Assembly: GCA_964654545.1 (NCBI GenBank)
Contig: CAZZIU010000004.1
Location: 8,156-72,155 of the forward strand
From: an uncultured bacterium
GTDB taxonomy: Bacteria; Fidelibacterota; Marinisomatia; Marinisomatales; JABMOV01
Reading direction: 5' to 3'
Length of the DNA: 64,000 nt
The position numbers were made by a program, and so were the translations under genes. The notes below the pieces were generated by a model. That model saw only the letters and a program-made list of their open reading frames with translations, did no database searches and had not been told where the DNA came from. Below are positions 7,914 through 62,867 of the stretch, piece by piece. How positions within the stretch are numbered: the stretch's first letter is position 1; every line of letters begins with the position of its first letter.

Positions 7914-10001
7914 ATGGCGTTGTTATCATCGAACACAGTAAAAGTAGAAAAGGTTATTAGTGAGATTGAATCCGGTACGGTATTTGTGAATCCGTATGCT
8001 GCTGCAAATGTATTTTTGGCTGAGTTAAAACAAAAAGCAGCCACACAAAGACTTGAAATGGGAAATTTAAAGCCGCCAGATTCGGATGGTGTGATATTAT
8101 ATGATCATACTGATTGGCCCAATTCATTGAATCCTCCGATTAGCACTGCCAACTCTTACAATGCTAATCAACACAGCGAAATACTTCATCTTTTGGATCT
8201 ATATATGAATACCTGCACTTCGTTTGTGTTTCATACAGATGCCAGAAGTGGAGTCAACACTAGCCCAGATTATGTGGTCACGACAAATGGCTCATCGCAG
8301 ACGATGGGTGCAAATTCAACCATTGACGTTATTTCTGGTGTTGCTCTTGGTTATGGTTTGGGTAGAAGTTCTTCCGTTGGCAGCACAAATGCTGAACCTT
8401 CTCTGTTTGAGACATATAATACGTCCAACGTAGACGAGGCACTAAATGTTCGAGATAATTATAAAGAGTCAGACTCTTTTAGTTCTGATATGGGAACAGA
8501 TAATATTATTTCTGCTATGTTTTCTAGTATATCAATTGATGCAAATACTCGGTCTACTTTATTGGCCGGCCCCGCAGCTAATTCAACCACTCATATACCA
8601 TCAGATGCTACAAGTTATTCTGCTAGGTTATCTGTCGCACAAACTGCTGCCTTTGATGCTGGAACTAGTAACACTTGCCGAACTGTTCGGGAGATGGGAG
8701 ATACGATTATTGATGAGTTGTCACGACATACAAATGAAAGGCGCGGCTCTATTGTGGCTGCAAGGTGGCCACTTGATGGCTTTGTTTTAAATCCAGATGG
8801 GCTTGATGCTAATTTGTCTAAGAATATCATTGATTTAAAAAATGCAACTCCATTCAATTTTGGTCCAGTGAAACCTGATTATGCGAATAGCTATACGCTT
8901 TTTGGTCAGACCTATTATACTAGCCCCGATGATCCTAATATTCCTGTAGGTAGTCTTGGGTCGTATCAAATTAATGCACTCGATAATGCTGATCTTCAGC
9001 CAGCAGGTGCATTCAGAAAAACTGGAAATTGTATCGCAACTTTCTTTGCAGATCCGGATGGTGATTCATTGTTTGGATCGGGTGATTTGGCGTTTCCCTC
9101 TATTCCGATCAGGCCTCCACGAGGAACTCTGAGACTTGCTAAACATGATGAAGTGAAAAATTACGAACAGCAAACATGGGCATTTTGGATTCGACCTACT
9201 GGAGCGATTGGTGACCGAACAAGAATTATTTCTCGCCCAGATTGGTGGCAATTGGCCGCAAATGTCGATTTTAGTTCAGCGAGCAGTGATGGCTACTCTC
9301 CTGGTTTTGTTGATGGTGCATATTGGGATTTGATTATTTCTGGTGTTTCTGTTAGTGATTCTAATCCGGATACTCCTGCCGATATGGGAGCGAGCGCCGC
9401 AAATAGAACACTTGTGGGAGAAAACATACTAAAACAGAATGTTTGGAATTTCATTGCAATGACGTTTGATTATCGCACGAGTGGAACTCCAGGAAAAGCA
9501 AAAATTTATGTGTATAATGTTGATGATGGGCATAAGTGTACGAACACATATACATTACCATCACAGACGACTGCAAGTGTAAACAATGCTGGGTACACGG
9601 TTAATGGTGATCGTGATAATAATGATCATATTCCATATAGCAATGGAGCAGTATGTCTCAGTGGTTTTGGGAACAGATTGGCCAACCGTAGAATAATTAA
9701 AGCCATGTATAGTGATGCTCGTTTTTATAGTACAATATTAACTGACCCCGAGGTCGATGAATTGTTTTATTTGTATGGCAGTTTTAGTCAGGAAATTGCC
9801 GCAAATACTACAATGTGGCTTGGATCGTTTAAGTCTGATTATTTGGCATATGATGTTGGTACGCAAAATGAGGTATATAGATGGAATACGATTGCGGCTC
9901 AAGCAAGAAGTTATCTTACTTTGGCCGAAAATAAATCAGTCGCGCCAATAATGAAAATAGTTGGAAGTCCATCATTTCAGGAGACAGCAAATTTGGCATA
10001 A
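7914..10001 (+). CDS. baseplate/fibre-associated protein with LamG/ConA-like lectin domain
   Basis: Blocks EQQTWAFWIRPTG, NVWNFIAMTFDY and YSDARFYSTILTDPEVDELF are typical of the Laminin-G_3 / concanavalin-like fold. The same block set recurs in the 2330-aa protein. Confidence 0.55.
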   Translation: MALLSSNTVKVEKVISEIESGTVFVNPYAAANVFLAELKQKAATQRLEMGNLKPPDSDGVILYDHTDWPNSLNPPISTANSYNANQHSEILHLLDLYMNTCTSFVFHTDARSGVNTSPDYVVTTNGSSQTMGANSTIDVISGVALGYGLGRSSSVGSTNAEPSLFETYNTSNVDEALNVRDNYKESDSFSSDMGTDNIISAMFSSISIDANTRSTLLAGPAANSTTHIPSDATSYSARLSVAQTAAFDAGTSNTCRTVREMGDTIIDELSRHTNERRGSIVAARWPLDGFVLNPDGLDANLSKNIIDLKNATPFNFGPVKPDYANSYTLFGQTYYTSPDDPNIPVGSLGSYQINALDNADLQPAGAFRKTGNCIATFFADPDGDSLFGSGDLAFPSIPIRPPRGTLRLAKHDEVKNYEQQTWAFWIRPTGAIGDRTRIISRPDWWQLAANVDFSSASSDGYSPGFVDGAYWDLIISGVSVSDSNPDTPADMGASAANRTLVGENILKQNVWNFIAMTFDYRTSGTPGKAKIYVYNVDDGHKCTNTYTLPSQTTASVNNAGYTVNGDRDNNDHIPYSNGAVCLSGFGNRLANRRIIKAMYSDARFYSTILTDPEVDELFYLYGSFSQEIAANTTMWLGSFKSDYLAYDVGTQNEVYRWNTIAAQARSYLTLAENKSVAPIMKIVGSPSFQETANLA

Positions 10002-10004
10002 TGT

Positions 10005-10012
10005 TATAAATA
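10005..10012 (+). promoter_or_regulatory. T4-type late promoter TATAAATA
   Basis: Perfect octamer in the intergenic region, 30 nt upstream of the g25 start. gp55 is encoded in this window. Confidence 0.65.
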
Positions 10013-10431: not shown

Positions 10432-12336
10432 ATGGCCACATCAACCACAAATAAGATTGACGTTACCGAGTTAGATTTTGATTTAATTAAAACTTCGTTG
10501 AAATCCTATATGAGAGGTCAATCGGAATTTACTGATTATGATTTCGATTCTTCTGGATTATCCATACTGCTGGATGTTCTTGCTTATAATACTCATTATA
10601 ATGGATTTTATGCAAACATGATCGCAAATGAGATGTTTCTAGACAGTGCAGCATTGAGAAATTCTGTAGTGTCGAGAGCAAAAGAATTGGGTTATGTGCC
10701 AAGATCGCCGACTGGTGCAGTTGCCACTGTGGATATCACTTTTACTATTTTCGAGAGTTCGGTTGCTGATTATCCTGGAGCGATTACGATACCTGCAAAT
10801 CATGTATTTTCGGCAACAATTGAAAATACGGTCTATACTTATTTGGCAACAAAGTCTTATTCGGCTATACCCACTTCCCTTATCACTGCTGCAAGCGTTA
10901 CGTCTGGTGTTGAATATAAAGCGTCAAATGTAATGATTAAAGAAGGAATCAGTTCATCTATTCAGCATATAGTCGGAAATGAGGGTACTGATCAGAAGTA
11001 TCAGATACCAAATGAAGAAGCAGATATGTCTACATTGGAAGTGGTTATTACTGATGCAGTTAGCGGTACTTCGTCTACTGCATGGTCCCGTGTTACAGAT
11101 ACAACAGCAGTTAGTTCCGACGATAATGTTTATTGGTTGCAAGAGGGGTTTGATAATAAGTTTGAAATTTATTTTGGAGATAATCAAGTAGGTAAAAAAC
11201 CAGGACCTGGATCTATTGTTACGATGAACTATACTTTAACTAAAGAAGAGTTGGGCAATGGTGCTACCATATTTGAGTGTGATCCTATACCTCTGGCTAG
11301 TGGCGCCTCGACATATCCTCGCCCTTCTACTAGTGATACTGTGCTGTCAACTACCACAATTAAGGCTGCTGCGGGGGGTGCCTCTAGAGAGTCTATTTCA
11401 TCTATTAAGTTTTTGGCACCTTTGAATTATGAATCACAGGGAAGGTCTGTTACGGTAAATGACTATAGAACTAAATTAACGACTTCATATCCAAACATAG
11501 ATGCGATTCGAGTTTGGGGAGGAGAGGAAAACACACCTCCAGATTATGGTGCGGTGTATATGTCGATTAAACCGAAGAGCGGTTATATATTGAGCGATAC
11601 CGATAAAACAAATATTATATCTGAATTTATTACTCCTAGTAATGTTGTCACTATTCGGCCTGTTTTGATTGATCCTAAATATATTTACATTCAGCCTACA
11701 ATTATTGTGAAATATGACAGTAAATTAACATTACAGACTCCATCAGCTTTAGCGAAGATTGTGTCGTTGACTGTATTAGATTTTGCTCAAAATAATTTAG
11801 AAAATTTTGAGGCATATTTTAAATCTTCTCAATTAAGCAGGCAAATTGATATTTCTTCTCCTGCGATTAGCAATAATTTGATGAGTATTAAAATTAGAGT
11901 AGAGTTTGTTCCGAGCACGACGAATGCTGGTAATTACACAGTAAATTTCTCTAATCCCATATTTCATCCACATACAACACACGAAGGCGCATTAACGAGT
12001 TCGTCTTTTACATATTTCGATAATGCTTTGTGTAAATTGCGAGATTATAATGGAGTTGTGCAAGTAATTTCTTCGACTGGTCAGGTGTTAAATGCGAATG
12101 TCGGCACAGTCGATTATCGGTCGGGTGTTGTTTCTTTAGTTAGCTTTTTGCCTACTGTTAATGCTGGTGAATCGATATCATTGATCGCAACACCAGAACA
12201 CGAAGATATTGTTCCTAATGTCGAGCAACTTATCACAATTCAAGAATCTGAGATTATAGTTTCGATGGTAAACGATTCTTCAATTATACAAGGAACATTG
12301 GCAGATCCAAATTATGGAAATGTTTCTGAATATTAG
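10432..12336 (+). CDS. g6: baseplate wedge protein gp6 (baseplate J-like)
   Basis: LDFDLIKTSLKSYMRGQSEFTDYDFDSSGLSILLDVLAYNTHYNGFYANMIANEMFLDSA is the gp6/J-type N-terminus. The g25-g6 adjacency matches T4. Confidence 0.8.
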   Translation: MATSTTNKIDVTELDFDLIKTSLKSYMRGQSEFTDYDFDSSGLSILLDVLAYNTHYNGFYANMIANEMFLDSAALRNSVVSRAKELGYVPRSPTGAVATVDITFTIFESSVADYPGAITIPANHVFSATIENTVYTYLATKSYSAIPTSLITAASVTSGVEYKASNVMIKEGISSSIQHIVGNEGTDQKYQIPNEEADMSTLEVVITDAVSGTSSTAWSRVTDTTAVSSDDNVYWLQEGFDNKFEIYFGDNQVGKKPGPGSIVTMNYTLTKEELGNGATIFECDPIPLASGASTYPRPSTSDTVLSTTTIKAAAGGASRESISSIKFLAPLNYESQGRSVTVNDYRTKLTTSYPNIDAIRVWGGEENTPPDYGAVYMSIKPKSGYILSDTDKTNIISEFITPSNVVTIRPVLIDPKYIYIQPTIIVKYDSKLTLQTPSALAKIVSLTVLDFAQNNLENFEAYFKSSQLSRQIDISSPAISNNLMSIKIRVEFVPSTTNAGNYTVNFSNPIFHPHTTHEGALTSSSFTYFDNALCKLRDYNGVVQVISSTGQVLNANVGTVDYRSGVVSLVSFLPTVNAGESISLIATPEHEDIVPNVEQLITIQESEIIVSMVNDSSIIQGTLADPNYGNVSEY

Positions 12337-53647: not shown

Positions 53648-54724
53648 ATGAAGATAGCTTTATTGACCGATACGCATTTCGGTGCGAGAAATGATTCCCA
53701 AGTATTCAATGAATACTTCATGCAATTTTATGATGAGCTATTCTTCCCATACCTAGAAGAACACAACATTAAAACTGTTATTCATTTGGGCGATATTGTT
53801 GATAGGCGAAAGTATATCAACTTCAAAACGCTTGAGAATTTTAGAAACAATTTTGTTTATCGTTTGGGTAAGATGGGTGTTGAGACTCATGTGATTCTTG
53901 GCAATCATGATATTTATCACAAGAACACCAATAGCATTAATGCAATGCATACGCTGTTTACGACTCTTGATGGTAAGTACGAACCGTGGATATATACTGA
54001 TCCAACTGTTGTCAATTTTGATGGGTTGGACATACTATTCATTCCTTGGATCACACCAGAGAAATCTGAGAAATCGATTCAGACGATTAAGGATACGAAG
54101 GCACAAGTTGCATTTGGTCATTTAGAGGTTCAGGGTTTTCTTATGGCACCAGGTATGCAGCCCTCTTCTCATGGATTGTCTGCATCTCTGTTTGATAAGT
54201 TTGACATTGCTTGTTCTGGTCATTATCATCATCGATCAAATAATGGCACACTTTTCTATCTGGGTTCTGCATATGAAATTACATGGGCAGATTATCAAGA
54301 CGATAGAGGATTTCATATTTTTGATACTGATACACGAGAGTTGACGTTTATCAAAAATCCGAATCATATGTTTTATAAGATTTTTTATGATGACAAAGAT
54401 AAGCAATTGGAAGATGTGATTCCTGCGAATCTATCACAGTATAAGAATCGAATGGTAAAAGTAGTCGTAACCAATAAGACAAATCCATATTGGTTTGATA
54501 TTATGTTGGACCATTTGTATAAATCCGATCCATATGATGTGACTATTGTAGAAGATCATAGTGAATATGATGTAGACGATGAAACTGTTTCCGTTGATCA
54601 GGCTGAAGATACGCTTACAATTCTTGGTAAGTTTATCGATACAATGGAAACAAATGTGCAGAAGGAAGAACTCAAGACATTATTTGGTGAGCTATATAGC
54701 GAGGCAATGACAGTTAATGATTAA
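53648..54724 (+). CDS. g47: recombination nuclease subunit gp47 (Mre11/SbcD-like)
   Basis: Calcineurin-like phosphoesterase motifs: LLTDTHFG, HLGDIVD, GNHD, and GHLEV...GHYH. Confidence 0.9.
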   Translation: MKIALLTDTHFGARNDSQVFNEYFMQFYDELFFPYLEEHNIKTVIHLGDIVDRRKYINFKTLENFRNNFVYRLGKMGVETHVILGNHDIYHKNTNSINAMHTLFTTLDGKYEPWIYTDPTVVNFDGLDILFIPWITPEKSEKSIQTIKDTKAQVAFGHLEVQGFLMAPGMQPSSHGLSASLFDKFDIACSGHYHHRSNNGTLFYLGSAYEITWADYQDDRGFHIFDTDTRELTFIKNPNHMFYKIFYDDKDKQLEDVIPANLSQYKNRMVKVVVTNKTNPYWFDIMLDHLYKSDPYDVTIVEDHSEYDVDDETVSVDQAEDTLTILGKFIDTMETNVQKEELKTLFGELYSEAMTVND

Positions 54725-56426
54725 GTTTGAGAAAATTCGTTATAAGAATTTTTTGTCATCGGGTAATAATTTTTCGGAAATTGATTTAGCCAAAGATGCA
54801 AGAACTCTTATTGTTGGTAAGAACGGGTCAGGCAAAAGCACATTGCTTGATGCGATTACCTTTGGTCTTTTTGGTAAACCATTCAGAAAGATTAACAAAC
54901 CTCTATTGGTCAACACGGTAAATGATGGCGAGTGTTTGGTTGAAGTTGAATTTAGTATAGGCACTGCACAGTATAAAGTTCGACGAGGTATTAAGCCTGC
55001 GGTCTTTGAAGTGATTCATGATGGAAACACAATCGACCAAACCGCGAGCGCCAAAGACTTTCAGGAATACTTTGAGCATCAAATCCTACATCTCAATTTC
55101 AAATCGTTTACGCAAGCGGTGATTCTAGGTAGTGCCACATTTCTTCCATTTATGCAATTGCCGGCTGCACACAGAAGAGAAGTGATTGAAGACCTACTTG
55201 ATATTCGCATCTTCTCTGGAATGAATGTGATTCTCAAAGAGAGAATAGGGCAAGTAAAGACAAACATTTCTGAGAATGAACGAAACGTCGAGGTTGCAAA
55301 CGAAAAGATTCAAATTCATCGAAAACATCTCAATAAGATACAAGATGACAGAGAAGCAGTAATAACTGCAAAAGAAGCCGATATTTCAAATACCGCTATT
55401 ACTATCGAAAATCATCAAGAAATAGTCAGCGAAAACAATAAGTTAATCGACACGCTATCCGCTAAAATTGAGAATTTTGGAAAATTTGAAAAAACGAAGA
55501 ATAAGATAGAAGGTCTGATCGATAAGATATTGGTCAAAGAAAAGAAGCTCAATAAAGAGATTGATTTCTATCAAAAGCATGATGAGTGCCCAACTTGTCA
55601 GCAAGATATTCAATCGGATTTTAAGTCTTCTATTATAGAAGACAAGAACAAGATGATAGAAGAAGTCACTTCTGGTATTGAAACGCTGAACACCAAACTT
55701 GAAAAAGTTACCGACAGCATTACCAAAATGACCACAATTAAAGATCAAATCGTAAAGCTGGAAACGACGAGTAATAATTATTCGGGTGAAATCAAAACTC
55801 TTGAAATGTATATCGAGAAGATAAACCAAGAGATTGAGAACATGCGAGCAATCAATGAAGATTTTTCACAAGAACAGGAAGAACTAGAATGCCTCGAAAA
55901 GAGCATTCAGGAATACGAATCAGAAAAAGAAGAACTAATTACAGACAATGAATTGTATAGTGTAGCTTCAGCATTGCTTAAAGATAATGGCATCAAGACT
56001 CTCATCATTAAACAGTATATTCCAGTTATTAATAAGCTCATTAATCATTATCTTGCTTCAATGGATTTCTTTGTTAATTTTACACTTGATGAAAATTTCA
56101 ATGAAACAATTAAGAGCCGACATCGTGATAGCTTTTCATACTACAATTTTTCAGAGGGCGAAAAGAAACGAATTGATCTTGCTCTACTATTCACTTGGCG
56201 AACGATTGCGAAGCTCAAGAATTCGGTTAATACCAATTTGCTGATCATGGATGAAGTATTCGATTCGAGTCTTGATAGCGAAGGTACAGAAGAGTTTTTT
56301 AAGATTCTATATTCTGTTCCAGAAGATTTGAACATCTTTATCATTTCGCACAAGGATGCATTGCAAGATAAATTCACTAATACGATTAGTGTTGAGAAGG
56401 TGAAAGGATTTAGTAAACTGACATGA
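54717..56426 (+). CDS. g46: recombination ATPase subunit gp46 (Rad50/SbcC-like)
   Basis: Walker A GKNGSGKST, a long central coiled coil with a CPTC zinc hook, a FSEGEKKRIDLAL signature, and Walker B LLIMDEVFD. Confidence 0.9.
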   Translation: MIKFEKIRYKNFLSSGNNFSEIDLAKDARTLIVGKNGSGKSTLLDAITFGLFGKPFRKINKPLLVNTVNDGECLVEVEFSIGTAQYKVRRGIKPAVFEVIHDGNTIDQTASAKDFQEYFEHQILHLNFKSFTQAVILGSATFLPFMQLPAAHRREVIEDLLDIRIFSGMNVILKERIGQVKTNISENERNVEVANEKIQIHRKHLNKIQDDREAVITAKEADISNTAITIENHQEIVSENNKLIDTLSAKIENFGKFEKTKNKIEGLIDKILVKEKKLNKEIDFYQKHDECPTCQQDIQSDFKSSIIEDKNKMIEEVTSGIETLNTKLEKVTDSITKMTTIKDQIVKLETTSNNYSGEIKTLEMYIEKINQEIENMRAINEDFSQEQEELECLEKSIQEYESEKEELITDNELYSVASALLKDNGIKTLIIKQYIPVINKLINHYLASMDFFVNFTLDENFNETIKSRHRDSFSYYNFSEGEKKRIDLALLFTWRTIAKLKNSVNTNLLIMDEVFDSSLDSEGTEEFFKILYSVPEDLNIFIISHKDALQDKFTNTISVEKVKGFSKLT

Positions 56427-57532
56427 AAGATTGGCAACACGGATATGAATTAGAATATTTGAAAGAGATTGAAAGTCGGTATTCGCTGTATAACCATCAC
56501 TCGTGTTCTCCTTTTTCTGAAATGAAGAAGAATACAATTGCAAAGGATTTGCACGAAGGAAATCTTTTCATAGAAGAATATGGCATGTATGTAGAAAAGA
56601 CTGCAAAGGTCGAATCTGCAATCAAGATGTTTGATGATGTCGTTATTGGAAAAAAAGAAAAAGGTGACCGAATCATTACGCGATTTAGCTATGAATCCGA
56701 AAGATGGTGTCGCCGTAAACTATCGCAGCTTGAAGGTCCTTGTTGGTTGGAACTTTGGGCAGAAAATTTTGAAGCAAGGAGAATTGCCCAAGAGTGTGAT
56801 TTTGTAGAAGTTGGAACAAAAGTTACGTCTTTCGGCGAACTGTTGGTTTGGCTGTTCAAAGACGCAGACAATCCTTTGTTTGAAAGGCAACATCCTCATG
56901 TGATGCCAGAAGAGTTTTACACGCTGAGAAAAGCTAGATTGTCTGAGATTCCGATTCAGCCTCTTATCGATTCGTTGGATCGTATTGATTTGGATTACAC
57001 AGACCACTATTCAAATTATAACAAGAAGCATTCTTGGTCTGCTCTCTCGTTTCGTGGATATACAAATAATCCTGCATTCATCACTAAACCAGAAGAGATG
57101 AATAAGAAGTGGAAAGAAGAGCATAAGGATGTCGTGTTTGCTATGCAAGACACGCCATTGCGAGAAAAGTTCCCGGAACTTGAACCGGTTATAAATACGT
57201 TACCAGGTGAGAAGCATAGAATACGATTAATGAAACTTGTTCCGGGTGGTGGCGAACTACAAAGACACACCGATCAAGTAGACAAAGATTCTGGAATACG
57301 AAATGGTAAGATTATGCGATTTCATTTTCCATTGATTACTAACCAAAACGTGTCGTTTACAAATTGGCAAACAAATGGAGTGCCTACGCACGCAAACATG
57401 CAAGTTGGCGAGTGTTGGTATATTGATACAAGAAAACCCCATAGTGCTATTAATTCTGGAAACAAAGATAGAATACATCTGGTTGTTGACGTAGAAGCAA
57501 ATGATACTTTGAGGGGACTGATAGGTGATTAG
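56423..57532 (+). CDS. 2OG/Fe(II)-type cupin dioxygenase, aspartyl/asparaginyl beta-hydroxylase-like
   Basis: ATGA overlap with g46. The C-terminal domain LVPGGGELQRHTDQV...MRFHFPLIT...VGECWYIDTRKPHSAINSGNKDRIHLVVDV fits the AspH-family HxD...H...R pattern. The N-terminal 190 aa or so are unassigned. Confidence 0.75.
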   Translation: MKDWQHGYELEYLKEIESRYSLYNHHSCSPFSEMKKNTIAKDLHEGNLFIEEYGMYVEKTAKVESAIKMFDDVVIGKKEKGDRIITRFSYESERWCRRKLSQLEGPCWLELWAENFEARRIAQECDFVEVGTKVTSFGELLVWLFKDADNPLFERQHPHVMPEEFYTLRKARLSEIPIQPLIDSLDRIDLDYTDHYSNYNKKHSWSALSFRGYTNNPAFITKPEEMNKKWKEEHKDVVFAMQDTPLREKFPELEPVINTLPGEKHRIRLMKLVPGGGELQRHTDQVDKDSGIRNGKIMRFHFPLITNQNVSFTNWQTNGVPTHANMQVGECWYIDTRKPHSAINSGNKDRIHLVVDVEANDTLRGLIGD

Positions 57533-57535
57533 ATT

Positions 57536-58318
57536 ATGTTATTTGACGAGGCAGAAACTTATTTGAATAGAATTGGTGATTGGGTTGATCCAAATCCAGA
57601 ACCAATCATTATGGAACACGAAGGCTTTGTTGTTGTTCGTGATGACTTGCTTGGTGCTGGAACAAAAGTTCGTGGTCTTGACTATTTGATCGGTCATGCT
57701 CCAGAATACAAAAACATTAGAGAGTGGGTGTTTGGCTCTTGCCCTGCGACTGGTTATGCTCAGATTAGTCTGCCTACTGTATGCTCGCGTTACGATAAGC
57801 GTGCCGTTCTTTTTATGGCAAAAAGAGATCCAAAGAACTTTCATCCGTATCAAAAACTAGGCATTCGTGCAGGAACAGATTATCGGTGGGTGCCAAATGG
57901 TATGTTGAATGTGACTCAAGCCAGGGCGCGTGAATATGCAGAAGAGTCACCCGAAACGCGAAAAGTTTTACCTCTCGGTCTAGAGCATCCATATGTAACT
58001 GCATGTTTCATTAAGGTTGCACGTTCATTGCCCGAGCCAAAAGAGTTTTGGACTGTTGGTTCAAGTGGTTCATTAAATCGTGCGTTGCAATTAGCATGGC
58101 CAGATGCAGATGCTCATGTTGTTTCTGTCGGGCATAAGATGAAGGAACGCGAAATTGGTCGAGCGAAATATTATCGTTCAGATTTGAAATTTGATAAAGC
58201 AGTATTAGCAAAGGACGAACCACCCTTTCCCTCTGCACCCACTTATGATGCAAAAGCATGGAAGTTTGTGCGCGAACATGCATCACCTGGTGCGTTGTTT
58301 TGGAATGTTGGTGCTTAA
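57536..58318 (+). CDS. PLP-dependent enzyme, ACC deaminase / D-cysteine desulfhydrase family (short, 260 aa)
   Basis: VVRDDLLGAGTKVRGLDYLI aligns with [24 protein letters not shown] of Pseudomonas ACC deaminase, placing the PLP lysine at K44 (nt 57665-57667). EHPY, the VGSSGS loop, and the C-terminal PTYDAKAW / FWNVGA also align. Confidence 0.7.
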   Translation: MLFDEAETYLNRIGDWVDPNPEPIIMEHEGFVVVRDDLLGAGTKVRGLDYLIGHAPEYKNIREWVFGSCPATGYAQISLPTVCSRYDKRAVLFMAKRDPKNFHPYQKLGIRAGTDYRWVPNGMLNVTQARAREYAEESPETRKVLPLGLEHPYVTACFIKVARSLPEPKEFWTVGSSGSLNRALQLAWPDADAHVVSVGHKMKEREIGRAKYYRSDLKFDKAVLAKDEPPFPSAPTYDAKAWKFVREHASPGALFWNVGA

Positions 58319-58326
58319 TATTTATT

Positions 58327-59004
58327 GTGATTTCTGAGACTAAAGAATTCCTATATAGTACAATAAAAGAATATGAACATATTGCATTGTCGTGTTCTTT
58401 TGGTGCGGCTGAAGGCATGGTGATCATAGACTTATTGGATAGTCTTGATATTCATATTCCTATATTTGTGCTTGATACTGGAAGACTACCTCAGGAAACA
58501 CACAATTTGATCGACCGTATACGAGATCGCTATGATGTCAATATCGACATGGTGTTTCCAAATTCAGATGAATTGTTTGATCTGGTTAAGACAAGGGGAC
58601 CAAACTGTTTCTTCGATTCGGTTAGTAATCGCAAGCTCTGCTGTCATGTGAGAAAAGTGGCACCACTAAAAAGGTACATGGAAAATAAAGGATATAAAGC
58701 ATATATATCAGGAGTGCGAAAAGAACACAGCGAAGAAAGATCAAAAGCAGAACGCATCGAAAAACAAGCCGATGGTATGATCAAGATTAATCCACTATGC
58801 GACTGGACATACACTGACGTATGGGAATATGTAAATGCAAATAGCGTTCCAGTGAACAAATTACACACAATGGGATATGAGTCAGTTGGCTGTGCTCCAT
58901 GTTCTCGACCGGGAAAAGGTCGAGACGGTCGTTGGTGGTGGGAAAATTCAAATAAAGAATGTGGCATACATGATTATGGTCACACAGATGGGTCAGGCAT
59001 ATGA
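58327..59004 (+). CDS. cysH: assimilatory sulfonucleotide (APS/PAPS) reductase CysH, Fe-S-cluster type
   Basis: C-terminal KECGIH (58957-58971) matches the CysH ECGLH motif. The CC pair (58639-58644) plus CAPC (58891-58902) form the APS-reductase Fe-S signature. ALSCSFGAEG is the PP-loop-like N-terminus. A GTG 58327 start is inferred, because the track ATG at 58258 overlaps the upstream gene by 61 nt. Confidence 0.85.
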   Translation: MISETKEFLYSTIKEYEHIALSCSFGAAEGMVIIDLLDSLDIHIPIFVLDTGRLPQETHNLIDRIRDRYDVNIDMVFPNSDELFDLVKTRGPNCFFDSVSNRKLCCHVRKVAPLKRYMENKGYKAYISGVRKEHSEERSKAERIEKQADGMIKINPLCDWTYTDVWEYVNANSVPVNKLHTMGYESVGCAPCSRPGKGRDGRWWWENSNKECGIHDYGHTDGSGI

Positions 59005-60596
59005 AGCATTTTTATGAGCGAAACGACTATATACTCAATCATGAAATCAATAAGAATTTTGAAGAGATTTTGTGGATGAATGATACGGAGTTTCGGCAAT
59101 GGGTGATTGACATGCGAAAGGTGATTGCTTATGCTTGGGATGAGCTAGGCATTCCTCCTCGTGTTGGATTCAATGAAGATCAAATCATCGACCAGTTCAA
59201 CAAACTTGATTCTTTTCCTGTTCACGGATTTGTACAGACTGATGAAGTGACTGGTGAAAAAGATGTTATTCGTAACACATCTGTTGTAGGTAATGCTGCC
59301 AATCAGTGGTTTCCTACAATGATGGCAACCAAGATCAATTATAAAAATTCTTCTGACGGGCTCTCGATCTACGATCATTTTGTGCGTGATGATTTGCTCG
59401 AAAAAGTGACTACTTACTCTCGTAGGCACTTCAAACGAGACAGTTTCTATCATTACTCGCTTCCAGTAAAGGCTCGCGATCAAGAAAATTTTGTGTTCTA
59501 TGCTGAGACTGGAGCCGAGTGGATCGATCAATTCGAGAAGAATGAGCGTCAATATGAACGAAGTGATTATTGGCTTTGCCCGAAGAAAGAAGATGCTAAG
59601 TACACAGGTTACAACGAGAAACTAAAGAATCAGACATGGCTTACTCTTACTAAAGATGAAATTGAGAGCATAAATATACCTGAAAAATGTAAAACAAATG
59701 TTGATTATGACAAAAGCGAACTTTATCAGATAAGGTACTTCTCTTATGGACAAAAACTCTTTCCCCTTGGACTCAAGGCCTTCCGAATCTCTTGGTGCCA
59801 ATACGCAGTCAACTTCCCACCGCTCACCGCGAAGTATCTATATGAGACGTATACGGAGAGCTTGGTCCGAGAAAAAACAAAGTCGCACACAGAGAGTGAT
59901 CGCATTGTTATTTATGATCCCAGTAGTGGTTGGGGTGGCCGTATTCTTGGCGCTATGTGCGTTCGCCCTGATCGCACTATTCATTATATCGGCACCGATC
60001 CTAATACTGACCATGTTATTGATGAGCGCAATGGGAGCAATTATACAAAGTATGAAGACCTTGCAACTTTTTATAACGAAAAAACTTATCGAACTCAAGG
60101 ACTATTCCCGAAAGTAAATACATATGAGCTATTTCAAGATGGCTCTGAAGTTATTTCACAGAATGAAAAGTTTCAAGAGTACAAAGGTAAAGTGGATCTG
60201 GTGTTCACTTCACCTCCATACTTTGCGAAAGAGGCGTACTCTCAAGACGAGACACAATCTTATAAAAAGTTTGGTGAGTATGATGAATGGCGAGATGGGT
60301 TTCTCGTTCCTACATTAGAGACGTGTGTTGAATGGTTGGCACATGAACGATATCTTTTGTGGAATATTTCAGATGTTAAGTTTGGTAAAGATATGTTGCC
60401 TCTTGCAGAAGATTCGCAGAAAATTCTTGAGTCTCTAGGTATGAAATTTGTTAAGATATGGAAGATGTCGATGGCACAGATGCCTGGTGCAAACAGACTT
60501 GATCCCGACACAGGACTCCCAATGGCTAAATATTCCTGTAAGGTCAAAGACATTTGGCTGAAATACGAACCTATATTTGTATATTATAAACCATAG
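59001..60596 (+). CDS. DNA methyltransferase, (S/D/N)PPY type (N6-A or N4-C), with about 280-aa unassigned N-terminal half
   Basis: Motif IV DLVFTSPPYF (SPPY at 60210-60221). Motif-I-like IVIYDPSSGWGGRILGA lies about 110 aa upstream and is preceded by NFPPLTAKYLYETY. The start has an ATGA overlap with cysH. Confidence 0.7.
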   Translation: MKHFYERNDYILNHEINKNFEEILWMNDTEFRQWVIDMRKVIAYAWDELGIPPRVGFNEDQIIDQFNKLDSFPVHGFVQTDEVTGEKDVIRNTSVVGNAANQWFPTMMATKINYKNSSDGLSIYDHFVRDDLLEKVTTYSRRHFKRDSFYHYSLPVKARDQENFVFYAETGAEWIDQFEKNERQYERSDYWLCPKKEDAKYTGYNEKLKNQTWLTLTKDEIESINIPEKCKTNVDYDKSELYQIRYFSYGQKLFPLGLKAFRISWCQYAVNFPPLTAKYLYETYTESLVREKTKSHTESDRIVIYDPSSGWGGRILGAMCVRPDRTIHYIGTDPNTDHVIDERNGSNYTKYEDLATFYNEKTYRTQGLFPKVNTYELFQDGSEVISQNEKFQEYKGKVDLVFTSPPYFAKEAYSQDETQSYKKFGEYDEWRDGFLVPTLETCVEWLAHERYLLWNISDVKFGKDMLPLAEDSQKILESLGMKFVKIWKMSMAQMPGANRLDPDTGLPMAKYSCKVKDIWLKYEPIFVYYKP

Positions 60597-60607: not shown

Positions 60608-61342
60608 TTGGGACGTAAAAATAGAAGGATGAAAATGAAGCAAGTCGAGCATCTAAAGTTAGTCGATGCTCAAATCATGGAAACAGACTTCAGAAAAGAA
60701 AGAAAGGTTGAACTCTCAGCAAGAAATCCCAAACAGCAAAGATTAATAAATCTGTTAGAAAATCACAATAAGCATATTACGTTTGCAATAGGACCAGCTG
60801 GTACAGGCAAAACGCTAATCAGCACACTCTACGCAATTCGTAGCCTAAAAAATAAAACAACTCAAAAAATTGTAATAACTCGACCGGCAGTGAGTGTTGA
60901 TGAACAACACGGATTTTTGCCGGGAACATTGGTAGAGAAGATGAGCCCGTGGACAAGACCAATGTTTGACATATTCGAGGAATACTATTCCCCGAGCGAA
61001 ATCGGACAACTAATTAACGAAAATATAATTGAGATTGCTCCTCTTGCGTATATGCGCGGGCGAACATTCAAAAATTCTATAATTATTGCCGATGAGATGC
61101 AAAATGCAACTGATAATCAGATGAAAATGTTATTGACAAGAATAGGAGAAAATAGTAAGATTGTAGTTACTGGTGATCTTGACCAACACGATCGCGGGTA
61201 CGACAATAATGGTTTAAAAATGTTTGTGGATCGTTTACATAAACGTAATAGTAAAATGATTGGAGTAGTAGAATTCTCAAAAACCGAAATTGAACGACAT
61301 CCTGTTGTTGACGAGGTATTGAATCTATACGCTATGATCTAG
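60608..61342 (+). CDS. phoH: PhoH-like ATPase
   Basis: Walker A GPAGTGKT, ITRPAV, LPG, IIIADEMQN and VVTGDLDQ form the canonical PhoH block order. The start is TTG (ATG alternatives at 60629 and 60635). Confidence 0.9.
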   Translation: MGRKNRRMKMKQVEHLKLVDAQIMETDFRKERKVELSARNPKQQRLINLLENHNKHITFAIGPAGTGKTLISTLYAIRSLKNKTTQKIVITRPAVSVDEQHGFLPGTLVEKMSPWTRPMFDIFEEYYSPSEIGQLINENIIEIAPLAYMRGRTFKNSIIIADEMQNATDNQMKMLLTRIGENSKIVVTGDLDQHDRGYDNNGLKMFVDRLHKRNSKMIGVVEFSKTEIERHPVVDEVLNLYAMI

Positions 61343-61760: not shown

Positions 61761-62867
61761 ATGGGTAAATTTATTCGATTATTTGTAAGTGTAATTGTTA
61801 TGACCTTTATGGCTACTGCCGCAACTGCGGACGTACCTGTATGGGAGAACGGAGACCGTTCATTTAGCATTGGTGGTGCTCTGCGTACTAGTGGAGTTGC
61901 CGATTTAGATGATGGTAAGGATTTTGACGTTCTTGTAGATAATGCAAGAATCAATACTTCAGCAAAACTAAACGACTCTATTGATGCCGTAGTAAGCATC
62001 GAAAAGCGAGATGGTGAAGATATAAATCTACTTGATGGTTTTGTCAATGTAAAGGTCGTTGACAAACTTCAGGTTAGAGGTGGTCGCTATAAGGTAGCCA
62101 CCGATCGGAGCAATCTTGTATCACCATTTAATCAACTCGTTTGGAGTCCCGCTTCAGTCGTCAATCGCTACCCAGATACATATGACCGAAGAGCAGAGGG
62201 CATTTCTGCTTGGTCTAATCTTGGTAACCTCGGTGTATCTCCTTCTAACGATGGAGACCTAACACCTAAGTTCAAGTATTATCTTGGTGTGTTTACTGGA
62301 GTTAATAATAGTAACAACCCTATGGTAGCACTTCGAGGATCAGTTGATTTAGCTGATGTTGAGGGTGGTTATGATCTTGCTGGCACTTACTTTGGTCAGA
62401 AGGATATTTTTACACTAGGTGCCTCCTTTGCTAATCAGGAAAATGCATTTGGTGATGGAGACAATTTCACTGCATTTTCGTTTGATGTACTCTTTGAGCG
62501 AGACATCGAAGAGCTAAAGGGTACGCTTACACTTGGCGCATCTTTGAATGATTATGATCTAGATGATGCGTACTATACTGTAGGCAGCGATGTCCGCGAT
62601 GGTCGCGGTTATATGATCGAAGCTGGATATATTCCATCTTCTATTGTAATTGCAAAGGGTACTCCACTTGAGGGTAGAATCCAGCCCAACTTTAGATTTC
62701 AGAATTTTAAGTTCGGTGGAGCACAAAAGGGACGAGAGCAGCAGTTTGATGGTGGCTTAAACTATATCATTTCGCCAACAATTGTGGCAAATGTGAATTA
62801 TAGTCACAACAAGCTGAAAAAAGCTAAGTCTGAGGATATTACATTTGGTATTCGTTATAATTTCTAG
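61761..62867 (+). CDS. outer-membrane beta-barrel porin-like protein (possibly OprO/OprP phosphate-porin-like)
   Basis: Sec signal peptide MGKFIRLFVSVIVMTFMATAATA|DV. There are no other hydrophobic helices, and the sequence has alternating beta-strand patterning. The C-terminal ITFGIRYNF is an OMP beta-signal with a terminal Phe. LLDGFVNVKVVDKLQVRGGRYKVATDRSNLVSP resembles the Porin_O_P conserved block (from memory). Confidence 0.65.
   Translation: MGKFIRLFVSVIVMTFMATAATADVPVWENGDRSFSIGGALRTSGVADLDDGKDFDVLVDNARINTSAKLNDSIDAVVSIEKRDGEDINLLDGFVNVKVVDKLQVRGGRYKVATDRSNLVSPFNQLVWSPASVVNRYPDTYDRRAEGISAWSNLGNLGVSPSNDGDLTPKFKYYLGVFTGVNNSNNPMVALRGSVDLADVEGGYDLAGTYFGQKDIFTLGASFANQENAFGDGDNFTAFSFDVLFERDIEELKGTLTLGASLNDYDLDDAYYTVGSDVRDGRGYMIEAGYIPSSIVIAKGTPLEGRIQPNFRFQNFKFGGAQKGREQQFDGGLNYIISPTIVANVNYSHNKLKKAKSEDITFGIRYNF

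Follow-up and report, generated by a model that had tools for sequence, protein, structure and literature searches.

In the window analysed here, a stretch of 64,000 nucleotides (nt) of contig CAZZIU010000004.1 in which all positions are counted, four genes that we call A, B, C and D stand on the forward strand directly after g47 and g46; the present work concerns the partnership of B, which encodes a pyridoxal 5'-phosphate (PLP) enzyme, with D, which encodes a methyltransferase-fold protein, and the place of A and C beside them. Genes g47 (53648-54724; Pfam Metallophos) and g46 (54717-56426; Pfam AAA_23/SMC_N, 48% identity to cyanomyovirus gp46) encode a recombination nuclease pair of the Mre11/Rad50 type; they belong to the conserved T4-like backbone, and the pair is also present upstream of A and B in related contigs. 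Gene A (56423-57532) encodes an AspH-type 2-oxoglutarate (2OG)/Fe(II) oxygenase of 369 amino acids (aa), gene B (57536-58318) a fold-type II PLP enzyme of 260 aa in the family of phage M6 gp52 (phrog_7093), gene C, or cysH (58327-59004, with a GTG start), a 225-aa assimilatory reductase, predicted to be of the iron-sulfur type, for adenylyl sulfate (APS) or 3'-phosphoadenylyl sulfate (PAPS), and gene D (59001-60596) a 531-aa class-I methyltransferase-fold protein of the N6/N4 amino-methyltransferase type. Rereading coordinates and overlaps left the four open reading frames (ORFs) and all junctions as they stood in the preliminary description, which had been made from the sequence alone. Read directly, g46 and A overlap by ATGA (56423-56426); A ends with TAG, followed by 'att' and the ATG of B at 57536 (junction 57530-57538); B ends with TAA, 8 nt before the GTG at 58327; and C and D again overlap by ATGA (59001-59004). 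The GTG start of C is backed by the NCBIfam CysH model, which aligns from residue 6, and by identical metagenomic contigs that were called with a 225-aa product.

The product of B had been described as an ACCD-family PLP enzyme, a designation that holds for the fold and fails for the family. Its AlphaFold model (pLDDT, the predicted local distance difference test, 93.4) has a fold-type II PLP fold, whose top match in the PDB by Foldseek is the 1-aminocyclopropane-1-carboxylate (ACC) deaminase homologue 1j0a (E 3.8e-11; template-modelling score over the query, TMq, 0.80), followed by the D-cysteine desulfhydrases 4d8w and 4d8t (E ~2e-10); however, no match at E <= 0.01 was obtained in Pfam, PF00291 included, or in NCBIfam, including its ACCD and DcyD models. 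PADLOC gave no match for A or B, and searches of the PDB with single sequences and with profiles returned nothing significant for B and D. A clear relationship was found with phrog_7093 (E 1.9e-33), where aa 27-260 of B cover profile positions 14-279 of 279 and where the archetype, gp52 of Pseudomonas phage M6, scores 530 bits on the same profile. When the B family is aligned with gp52 by hhalign (probability 96.9%, E 1.3e-10, 223 columns), K44 of B, the predicted Schiff-base lysine (codon 57665-57667), falls on K36 of gp52, and the C-terminal segment PPFPSAPTYDAKAW...LFWNVG falls on APFPCNPFYDLKAW...VFWNIG; moreover, phmmer with gp52 as query directly matches B-family ORFs. K44 is invariant in 30 family members, together with R35, D36, D37, G42, R46, S176-G178, Y237, D238 and K240. 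The RDD...G-x-K-x-R and Y-[DE]-x-K motifs of B presumably resemble those of ACCD enzymes, a lead and not a test. The family comprises at least 728 proteins, nearly all metagenomic.

The gp52 protein and its counterpart gp226 of phage ViI have been purified, and both decarboxylate amino-acid:nucleobase conjugates in polymeric DNA (Lee et al., PMC8989533); the reactions lead from Calpha-glycinyl-T to 5-aminoethyl-2'-deoxyuridine (5-NedU) and from O-seryl-T to 5-aminoethoxymethyl-2'-deoxyuridine (5-NeOmdU) (PMC8989533). In the same work K36 is the likely aldimine lysine of gp52 and the structural template of gp226 is 1j0a (PMC8989533), which is also the top fold match of B. Judged from these alignments, the closest characterised relative of B is M6 gp52, a decarboxylase acting on DNA, and not DcyD or CuyA.

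The Pfam domains that had been assigned to A, C and D (PF05118, PF01507 and PF01555) were confirmed by scores of 44.1, 143 and 28.8 bits, the last of which is marginal (aa 398-498, cut-off 26.7). The methyltransferase domain of D spans aa ~240-531 and follows a conserved N-terminal domain (aa 1-~235), for which nothing that was searched gave a match. Motif I (IYDPSSGWGGR, 59910-59942) lies upstream of motif IV (FTSPPY, 60204-60221), the catalytic motif of amino-methyltransferases, and both DPSxGWGGR and FTSPPY are invariant in 30 members of a family of at least 2,119 proteins, again nearly all metagenomic. In BFVD the model of D (pLDDT 84) matches giant-virus proteins predicted to be N4-cytosine DNA methyltransferases and phage proteins named 'DNA methylases' (E ~5e-12), and among solved structures only generic methyltransferases; the PADLOC profile MTase_II is matched with E 6.5e-10. 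On its motifs, D is a divergent enzyme of the amino-methyltransferase fold in which the S-adenosylmethionine (SAM)-binding and SPPY motifs are intact.

In gene A, PF05118 covers aa 198-358 (cut-off 22.6) within an oxygenase domain of aa ~191-369, and the N-terminal part (aa 1-190) is conserved, with no fold assigned. Among solved structures the nearest are those of amino-acid hydroxylases, L-proline cis-4-hydroxylase (4p7w) matching at E 2.9e-6. The metal- and 2OG-binding residues H282-x-D284, H340, R350 and H352 are invariant in 25 sequences, and the family, conserved over its full length, has at least 827 proteins, which are nearly all metagenomic.

The evidence that ties B to a methyltransferase comes also from outside the T4-like phages. 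Among cultured phages, tblastn of B found only the Erythrobacter phages vB_EliS_R6L and ZS04 and the Microcystis phage Mae-JY30, and in all three the match falls under a 'DNA modification methylase' annotation. In Mae-JY30 and in alphaproteobacterial contigs (Pseudolabrys, Rhizobium, Devosia, Roseibium and others), the start of a B homologue (35-45% identity) overlaps the end of an N6_N4 methyltransferase gene by 4 nt. These B-associated methyltransferases have LDPFAGGSVRG as motif I and FSCPPY-x3-E-x-YS-x-D as motif IV; motif I and the signature F[ST][SC]PPY-x3-E-x-YS-x-D are common to them and to D, whose catalytic domain aligns with them by hhalign at a probability of 94.6% (E 6.8e-8). In gp1 of R6L the PLP domain (~aa 395-623) lies within the methyltransferase itself, between the segment with motifs I/II and the GDS...FSCPPY segment with motifs III/IV. 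Because the PLP domain is inserted in the SAM-binding half of the gp1 fold, this architecture is strong evidence, drawn from sequence, that both activities would work on the same substrate complex. As gene partners, B and D are met again in phages of very different kinds, and what is new is this recurrent coupling of a predicted PLP decarboxylase of the gp52 family to an enzyme of the amino-methyltransferase fold; in the searchable literature we found neither a pairing of a gp52-like PLP enzyme with a methyltransferase, as separate proteins or by domain insertion, nor phage DNA bases carrying 3-amino-3-carboxypropyl (acp) or aminopropyl groups. By phmmer and tblastn only, none of M6 gp51 (amino acid:DNA transferase), gp53 and gp54 (the kinase of 5-hydroxymethyl-2'-deoxyuridine, 5-hmdU) was found in the window, in the loci L003-L121 of T4-like relatives and of cells or in positions 1-50000 of R6L, and neither a radical-SAM isomerase nor a thymidylate-synthase-like hydroxymethylase has detectable homologues in R6L (50 kb) or in the 64-kb window.

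To place the arrangement in its T4-like context, 80 loci holding B were fetched from IMG/VR and grouped into 32 lineages of marine T4-like phages at 90% identity of B; D was counted within a 10-kb neighbourhood in the 27 lineages with enough downstream DNA, and A in 30 lineages. A nearby D accompanies B in 19 of the 27 lineages and a nearby A in 16 of the 30, and A, B and D are often carried by one long T4-like contig. L085-L088 have them as D-A-B; the trio thus stays together despite rearrangement. Near B, cysH is present in one IMG/VR lineage (L009, the window's own). All four genes in the order A-B-C-D occur together only in this lineage, to which the partial copies L115 and L116 belong, and in L099. 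The arrangement is not a conserved four-gene cassette, since 31 of the 32 IMG/VR lineages with B have no cysH; it had been thought to be unknown elsewhere, and this too needs correction, because it recurs in L009, in L115/L116 and, much diverged, in L099. Two kinds of protein were considered as a divergent A and rejected on comparison, namely a 325/333-aa protein between B and D in lineages devoid of A and a 368-aa protein before B in L093.

The junctions of A, B and D collect accessory genes, as the variety of genes inserted there in other lineages indicates: a small class-I methyltransferase, a dCMP deaminase, a DegT aminotransferase, an epimerase and unknown proteins. L009 (IMGVR_UViG_3300008740_000421), which has ~86-91% DNA identity to the window, gives the clearest case, with a 913-nt gene for an NAD-dependent epimerase/dehydratase (9091-9998; PF01370, 214 bits) that is inserted with tight ends exactly at the A/B junction, at window positions 57533-57535, and that the window does not have.

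Gene C differs from its neighbours in being a familiar enzyme with a restricted distribution. It scores 217.6 bits on the NCBIfam phosphoadenylyl-sulfate reductase equivalog NF002537 (cut-off 154) and 143 bits on PF01507; on TIGR02055, the model of the Fe-S type APS reductases, it stays under the cut-off (197.9 against 235.3). It has the motifs CC (58639-58644, aa 105-106), CAPC (58891-58902, aa 189-192) and ECGIH (58957-58971, aa 211-215), and the four cluster cysteines and the catalytic ECGIH are invariant in the alignment. C is a bona fide canonical assimilatory (P)APS reductase, which would boost the host supply of sulfite and cysteine independently of B and D. With C as query against representatives of public proteins, two more phage lineages were found that have cysH right after B, L099 and L113/L114. 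In L099 the full order g46-A-B-cysH-D is kept, with identities to the window of 57, 49, 71, 49 and 74%, and in L113/L114 B and cysH are followed by a gene for aspartate carbamoyltransferase. The spacing between B and cysH is a gap of 8 nt in the window and of 1 nt in L099, and an overlap of 8 nt in L113. At least 31 of the 34 lineages examined have B and no nearby cysH. The aspartate carbamoyltransferase gene (pyrB-like; L113 1574-2551, L114 1296-1961; PF02729, PF00185) is an auxiliary gene of pyrimidine synthesis in the same accessory slot.

The three phage cysH proteins are 49-52% identical and cluster together in a neighbour-joining tree with their closest representatives (no support values); a loop shortened by 4 residues (PCSRPGxGRxGRWWWEN) and the C-terminal GSGI, which all three share, set them apart from cellular relatives. 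In the tree of B, which also has no support values, L099 is sister to L005/L013, and these have A, B and D with no cysH. The simplest history that fits these sequences would be one old acquisition of cysH after B in the ancestor of a sub-clade, followed by vertical descent and repeated loss, so that the adjacency of B and cysH would reflect vertical inheritance; the best reading of cysH is that of a dispensable accessory passenger of an A-B-D backbone. No remnants of cysH turned up in the 167-225-nt gaps between B and D of the cysH-less sisters L005 and L017, which are occupied by a small ORF or by promoter-like sequence. Relatives of cysH were also sought in metagenomes, with a weak negative: none of the at least 80 loci listed, with 40-51% identity, has A, B or D. 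The closest cellular cysH genes (L117 and L118-L121; 44-49% identity) stand beside a gene for ATP sulfurylase and divergent from one for ComA (phosphosulfolactate synthase), on contigs that look archaeal (archaeal-type AdoMet synthase, Ta1207) and have no bearing on the host; this context suggests that sulfite is made there for sulfonate synthesis. As a separate observation, R6L encodes a 347-aa PAPS-reductase-like protein, gp7 (L001 2386-3429), with a weak PF01507 match, ~1.4 kb upstream of gp1; tblastn detects no similarity between it and the cysH of the window.

The close packing of the four genes is nothing special in this window, where 15 of 39 same-strand junctions are of 10 nt or less, and the epimerase insertion of L009 is equally tight. 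The preliminary description had found neither TATAAATA, the consensus of T4 late promoters, nor a sigma70-like promoter or a hairpin terminator among the four genes. The first of these statements is wrong, as one copy of TATAAATA lies within gene A (57190-57197), spelled by V-I-N-T codons; among relatives only the closest, L009, retains it, and all other lineages are devoid of it over the stretch from g46 to D, so that it probably arises as a by-product of these codons and is not a functional late promoter. For the other two, only weak sites were found, a sigma70-like match with 10 of 12 consensus positions in a consensus scan (59107-59135) and, within the 3' end of B, a terminator-like hairpin of 7 bp with 3 G-C pairs and a T-rich tail (58278-58295). 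In the whole window TATAAATA occurs at 12 sites against 5.5 expected (for example at 10005, 35724, 43009, 45126, 48245, 49691, 62943 and 63560), mostly a few bases past the stop of a structural gene and before the next gene, which fits T4-type late promoters. Transcription of the four genes as one unit with g47 and g46, as had been proposed, is plausible in the window but not a conserved trait, because a perfect TTGACA-N17-TATAAT stands in the short B-D spacer of L016 (~1165-1200), L053 (~1240-1275) and L063 (~10940-10975). This promoter suggests that D is there an early gene with a promoter to itself.

Taking these data together, we give somewhat better than an even chance to the reading that B and D, and less certainly A, constitute a variant DNA hypermodification system, and that cysH is an old, dispensable insert between them, the locus being a mosaic and not one pathway. 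The suggestion of a nucleotide or DNA modification pathway, made beforehand as a second possibility, is thereby supported for B and D through the gp52 kinship and the recurrent pairing, more weakly for A and not for cysH.

A possible chemistry can be outlined. An enzyme of the gp52 type needs a free alpha-amino acid tethered to DNA, and SAM is the only substrate of a methyltransferase fold that bears an amino acid; for this reason we propose D as the enzyme that installs the amino-acid group. D would act on a flipped-out base of the phage DNA, whose exocyclic amine, through the SPPY motif, would attack the gamma-carbon of SAM, so that the acp group would be installed with release of 5'-methylthioadenosine rather than S-adenosylhomocysteine. 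B would then decarboxylate the acp group to a cationic aminopropyl side chain; in the other possible order, B would make decarboxylated SAM and D would transfer the aminopropyl group from it, as spermidine synthases do. Such transfers on class-I methyltransferase folds have precedents in Tyw2, a Trm5-like acp transferase, and in the spermidine synthases. Where A is present, it may hydroxylate the side chain or its precursor, as its relatives hydroxylate amino acids, and the modified base would shield the phage DNA from host nucleases. The acp/aminopropyl chemistry is inferred by analogy, and the specific claim that D-type enzymes are SAM-dependent aminocarboxypropyl or aminopropyl transferases, writing with B an N-(3-aminopropyl) group on the exocyclic amines of A, C or G, is put forward tentatively, as possible rather than probable.

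Several observations weigh against a hypermodification module of this kind. Eight of the 27 lineages have no D within 10 kb of B; in D-less lineages B is followed by an overlapping gene for a ~457-aa protein with weak matches to glycosyltransferase group 1 (L054 10786-12159; L068 10786-12156; L022 4832-6217; L030 8071-9453), and there, we infer, B works with other partners, or D is located elsewhere in the genome. About half of the lineages with B and D do without A, and pelagimyophages have AspH-type genes in their core set (PMC7029224); A thus belongs to the module only weakly. In all three lineages that have it, cysH stands directly after B, which vertical inheritance explains, although the two may be functionally tied. 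The searches for installing enzymes were of limited sensitivity, made with phmmer and tblastn and on 64 kb of this genome, and the acp/aminopropyl proposal rests on the analogy with Tyw2 and spermidine synthases and on the domain insertion. On a plain reading, D may be no more than an ordinary DNA methyltransferase making N4-methylcytosine (m4C) or N6-methyladenine (m6A), and B may have other partners. The ~457-aa protein may be an alternative partner of B; it was also considered as a divergent D and rejected, being weakly glycosyltransferase-like instead.

The broadest alternative is that the region is an insertion hot spot in which the genes have no common task. D would be an orphan m4C/m6A methyltransferase that protects against restriction, B would tailor a base of the thymidine type with installers encoded elsewhere, or a free metabolite, A and cysH would be independent auxiliary genes, and their adjacency would reflect conserved T4-like gene order only. 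Such a picture agrees with the many different genes inserted between A, B and D in relatives, with the perfect promoter that D has in some lineages, with the eight lineages in which B has no D nearby, with D-like methyltransferases that occur apart from B in Staphylococcus, Bacteroides and Vibrio phages, and with the ordinary tightness of the junctions in the window. It does not account well for a methyltransferase-B pair that turns up repeatedly, overlapping by 4 nt, in the unrelated settings of siphophages and alphaproteobacterial contigs, the domain insertion of R6L gp1 is hard to explain unless the two activities are functionally coupled, and no thymidine-pathway installers were detectable in 50 kb of R6L; we consider this alternative unlikely, though one to be reckoned with. 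The combination of B and cysH also invites a different proposal, put forward in the preliminary description, of a sulfite/sulfide node in which cysH makes sulfite from APS or PAPS and B, acting like CuyA, DcyD or cysteate synthase, consumes or makes sulfite or sulfide and so rewires the sulfur flow of the host. The ACCD/DcyD fold of B, the position of cysH immediately after it wherever the gene is present, and the listing of both dcyD and cysH among viral organosulfur auxiliary genes (bioRxiv 10.1101/2021.01.05.425418) all speak for it. However, at least 31 of the 34 B lineages do without a nearby cysH, B is absent from every one of the 80 or more metagenomic cysH loci listed (40-51% identity), B is matched by none of the ACCD/DcyD family models and sides with gp52, a decarboxylase that acts on DNA, the conserved partner of B is a methyltransferase, and L005, a close sister of the cysH-bearing L099, keeps A, B and D and has no cysH. 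The sulfur node is therefore unsupported, and we regard it as very improbable.

It may finally be asked whether all four genes form one DNA-modification pathway, in which C, by virtue of its PAPS-reductase fold, acts on DNA or nucleotides in the manner of DndC or BrxP. C does match the PADLOC profile BrxP (E 1.3e-16), and PAPS-reductase folds occur in DNA-modification and defence systems; R6L has its PAPS-reductase-like gp7 ~1.4 kb from gp1, and the order A-B-C-D is kept in L099 at 49-74% protein identity. Against this, C passes the phosphoadenylyl-sulfate reductase equivalog and keeps the ECGIH tail and the Fe-S cysteines of assimilatory enzymes, gp7 of R6L is not detectably similar to it by tblastn, and most lineages with B and D have no C, so that a pathway including C appears hardly credible, even less so than the sulfur node. 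A phosphorothioation system of the Dnd kind, which also combines a PLP enzyme with a PAPS-reductase fold, was considered and rejected: C is a canonical CysH that is rarely present, and B does not have the fold of cysteine desulfurases.

As regards the surroundings of the four genes, D is followed by phoH (60608-61342; PF02562, 233 bits), a neighbour outside the module. Its ORF begins at a TTG (60608), but ATG codons in the same frame, at 60629 and 60635, are preceded by AGAAGGA, which resembles a Shine-Dalgarno sequence, and a product of 235 aa was called on an identical contig (L115); the true start is probably one of these two ATG codons, which would make the spacer between D and phoH ~32-38 nt and not 11 nt. 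Further downstream, 61761-62867 on the forward strand encodes a 368-aa protein resembling outer-membrane porins, with a signal-peptide-like N-terminus and the C-terminus ...IRYNF, which matches NCBIfam porin_ExtI with E 7e-23, under the cut-off; its homologues are a copy of 88% identity in L009 and weak ones (26-27%) downstream of D in L005, L010 and L017. In a related T4-like lineage (L003/L004, 3761-5545) a full-length FtsH-like AAA protease gene (FtsH_ext, AAA, Peptidase_M41) stands between g47 and g46. Rfam and tRNA scans of the window gave no matches, and none of 50,697 phage records matched the 4.2-kb region at the nucleotide level.

Every phage hypermodification known to use a PLP decarboxylase begins with 5-hydroxymethyl-uracil and has an amino acid:DNA transferase dedicated to it, whereas here the partner has an amino-methyltransferase fold. 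If the aminopropyl proposal is true, it would describe an unseen class of hypermodification on non-thymine bases, common in uncultured marine T4-like phages, where metagenomes contain at least 700 sequences of B and at least 2,100 of D, and shared by Erythrobacter and Microcystis phages that are in culture. Should the pair make a new base, hypermodified DNA would be reached by a new chemical route in which SAM donates the side chain; the restriction resistance of an abundant group of uncultured marine myoviruses could thereby be explained, and DNA labelling would gain new enzymes. A likely annotation error is also corrected: genes like B are easily mis-scored in viromes as 'dcyD', 'ACC deaminase' or 'threonine dehydratase' auxiliary genes, and beside cysH they invite a reading in terms of the sulfur cycle that the comparative data do not back.

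Among characterised systems, the closest are the thymidine hypermodification pathways of M6 and ViI, in which 5-NedU and 5-NeOmdU are made by a 5-hmdU kinase, an aGPT-Pplase, a radical-SAM isomerase and the PLP decarboxylase gp52 or gp226 (PMC8989533, PMC5889632). B belongs to the same PLP family, phrog_7093, with the same predicted Schiff-base lysine and the same template, 1j0a, and the shared logic would be that of a PLP enzyme trimming a base-tethered amino acid to a cationic amine. The differences are that no kinase, aGPT-Pplase or radical-SAM partner was found here in the window, in L003-L121 or in 50 kb of R6L, that the partner has an SPPY amino-methyltransferase fold, pointing to an exocyclic amine of A, C or G and not to C5 of thymine, and that the carriers are T4-like marine myoviruses and alphaproteobacterial siphophages. 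ACC deaminase and D-cysteine desulfhydrase (1j0a, 4d8t) have the same fold-type II PLP fold (TMq 0.68-0.80); B, however, is ~70 residues shorter, has 13-17% identity to them, matches neither PF00291 nor the NCBIfam ACCD/DcyD models, and has DNA enzymes as partner genes.

On the methyltransferase side, the nearest system is that of the 'DNA modification methylases' of siphophages and prophages that combine ParB and methyltransferase domains. The B-associated enzymes of R6L and Rhizobium have an N-terminal ParB-like domain, and motif I LDPFAGGSVRG and motif IV FSCPPY are in common with the catalytic domain of D; in place of ParB, D has an unrelated conserved N-terminal domain of ~235 aa. Phages are also known to combine a methyltransferase making 5-methylcytosine (5mC) with a TET/JBP dioxygenase and a transferase for hypermodification (PMC8256090). 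That methyltransferase folds can move groups other than methyl to phage DNA is demonstrated by CmoX, a carboxymethyltransferase of Synechococcus phage S-B43 (PMC12783734). As proposed here, a methyltransferase fold acts on DNA first and an Fe/2OG oxygenase or another tailoring enzyme follows; those systems employ C5-cytosine methyltransferases and TET-type oxygenases, whereas the present locus combines a methyltransferase of the amino (N6/N4) type with an oxygenase of the AspH/proline-hydroxylase kind, and the partner that stays constant is a PLP enzyme. Finally, viral cysH auxiliary genes have been reported (bioRxiv 10.1101/2021.01.05.425418), and C resembles them as a canonical, stand-alone phage (P)APS reductase with no other cys genes beside it; it differs in its small, phage-specific clade, marked by the loop deletion of 4 residues and the C-terminal GSGI, and in its fixed position right after B.

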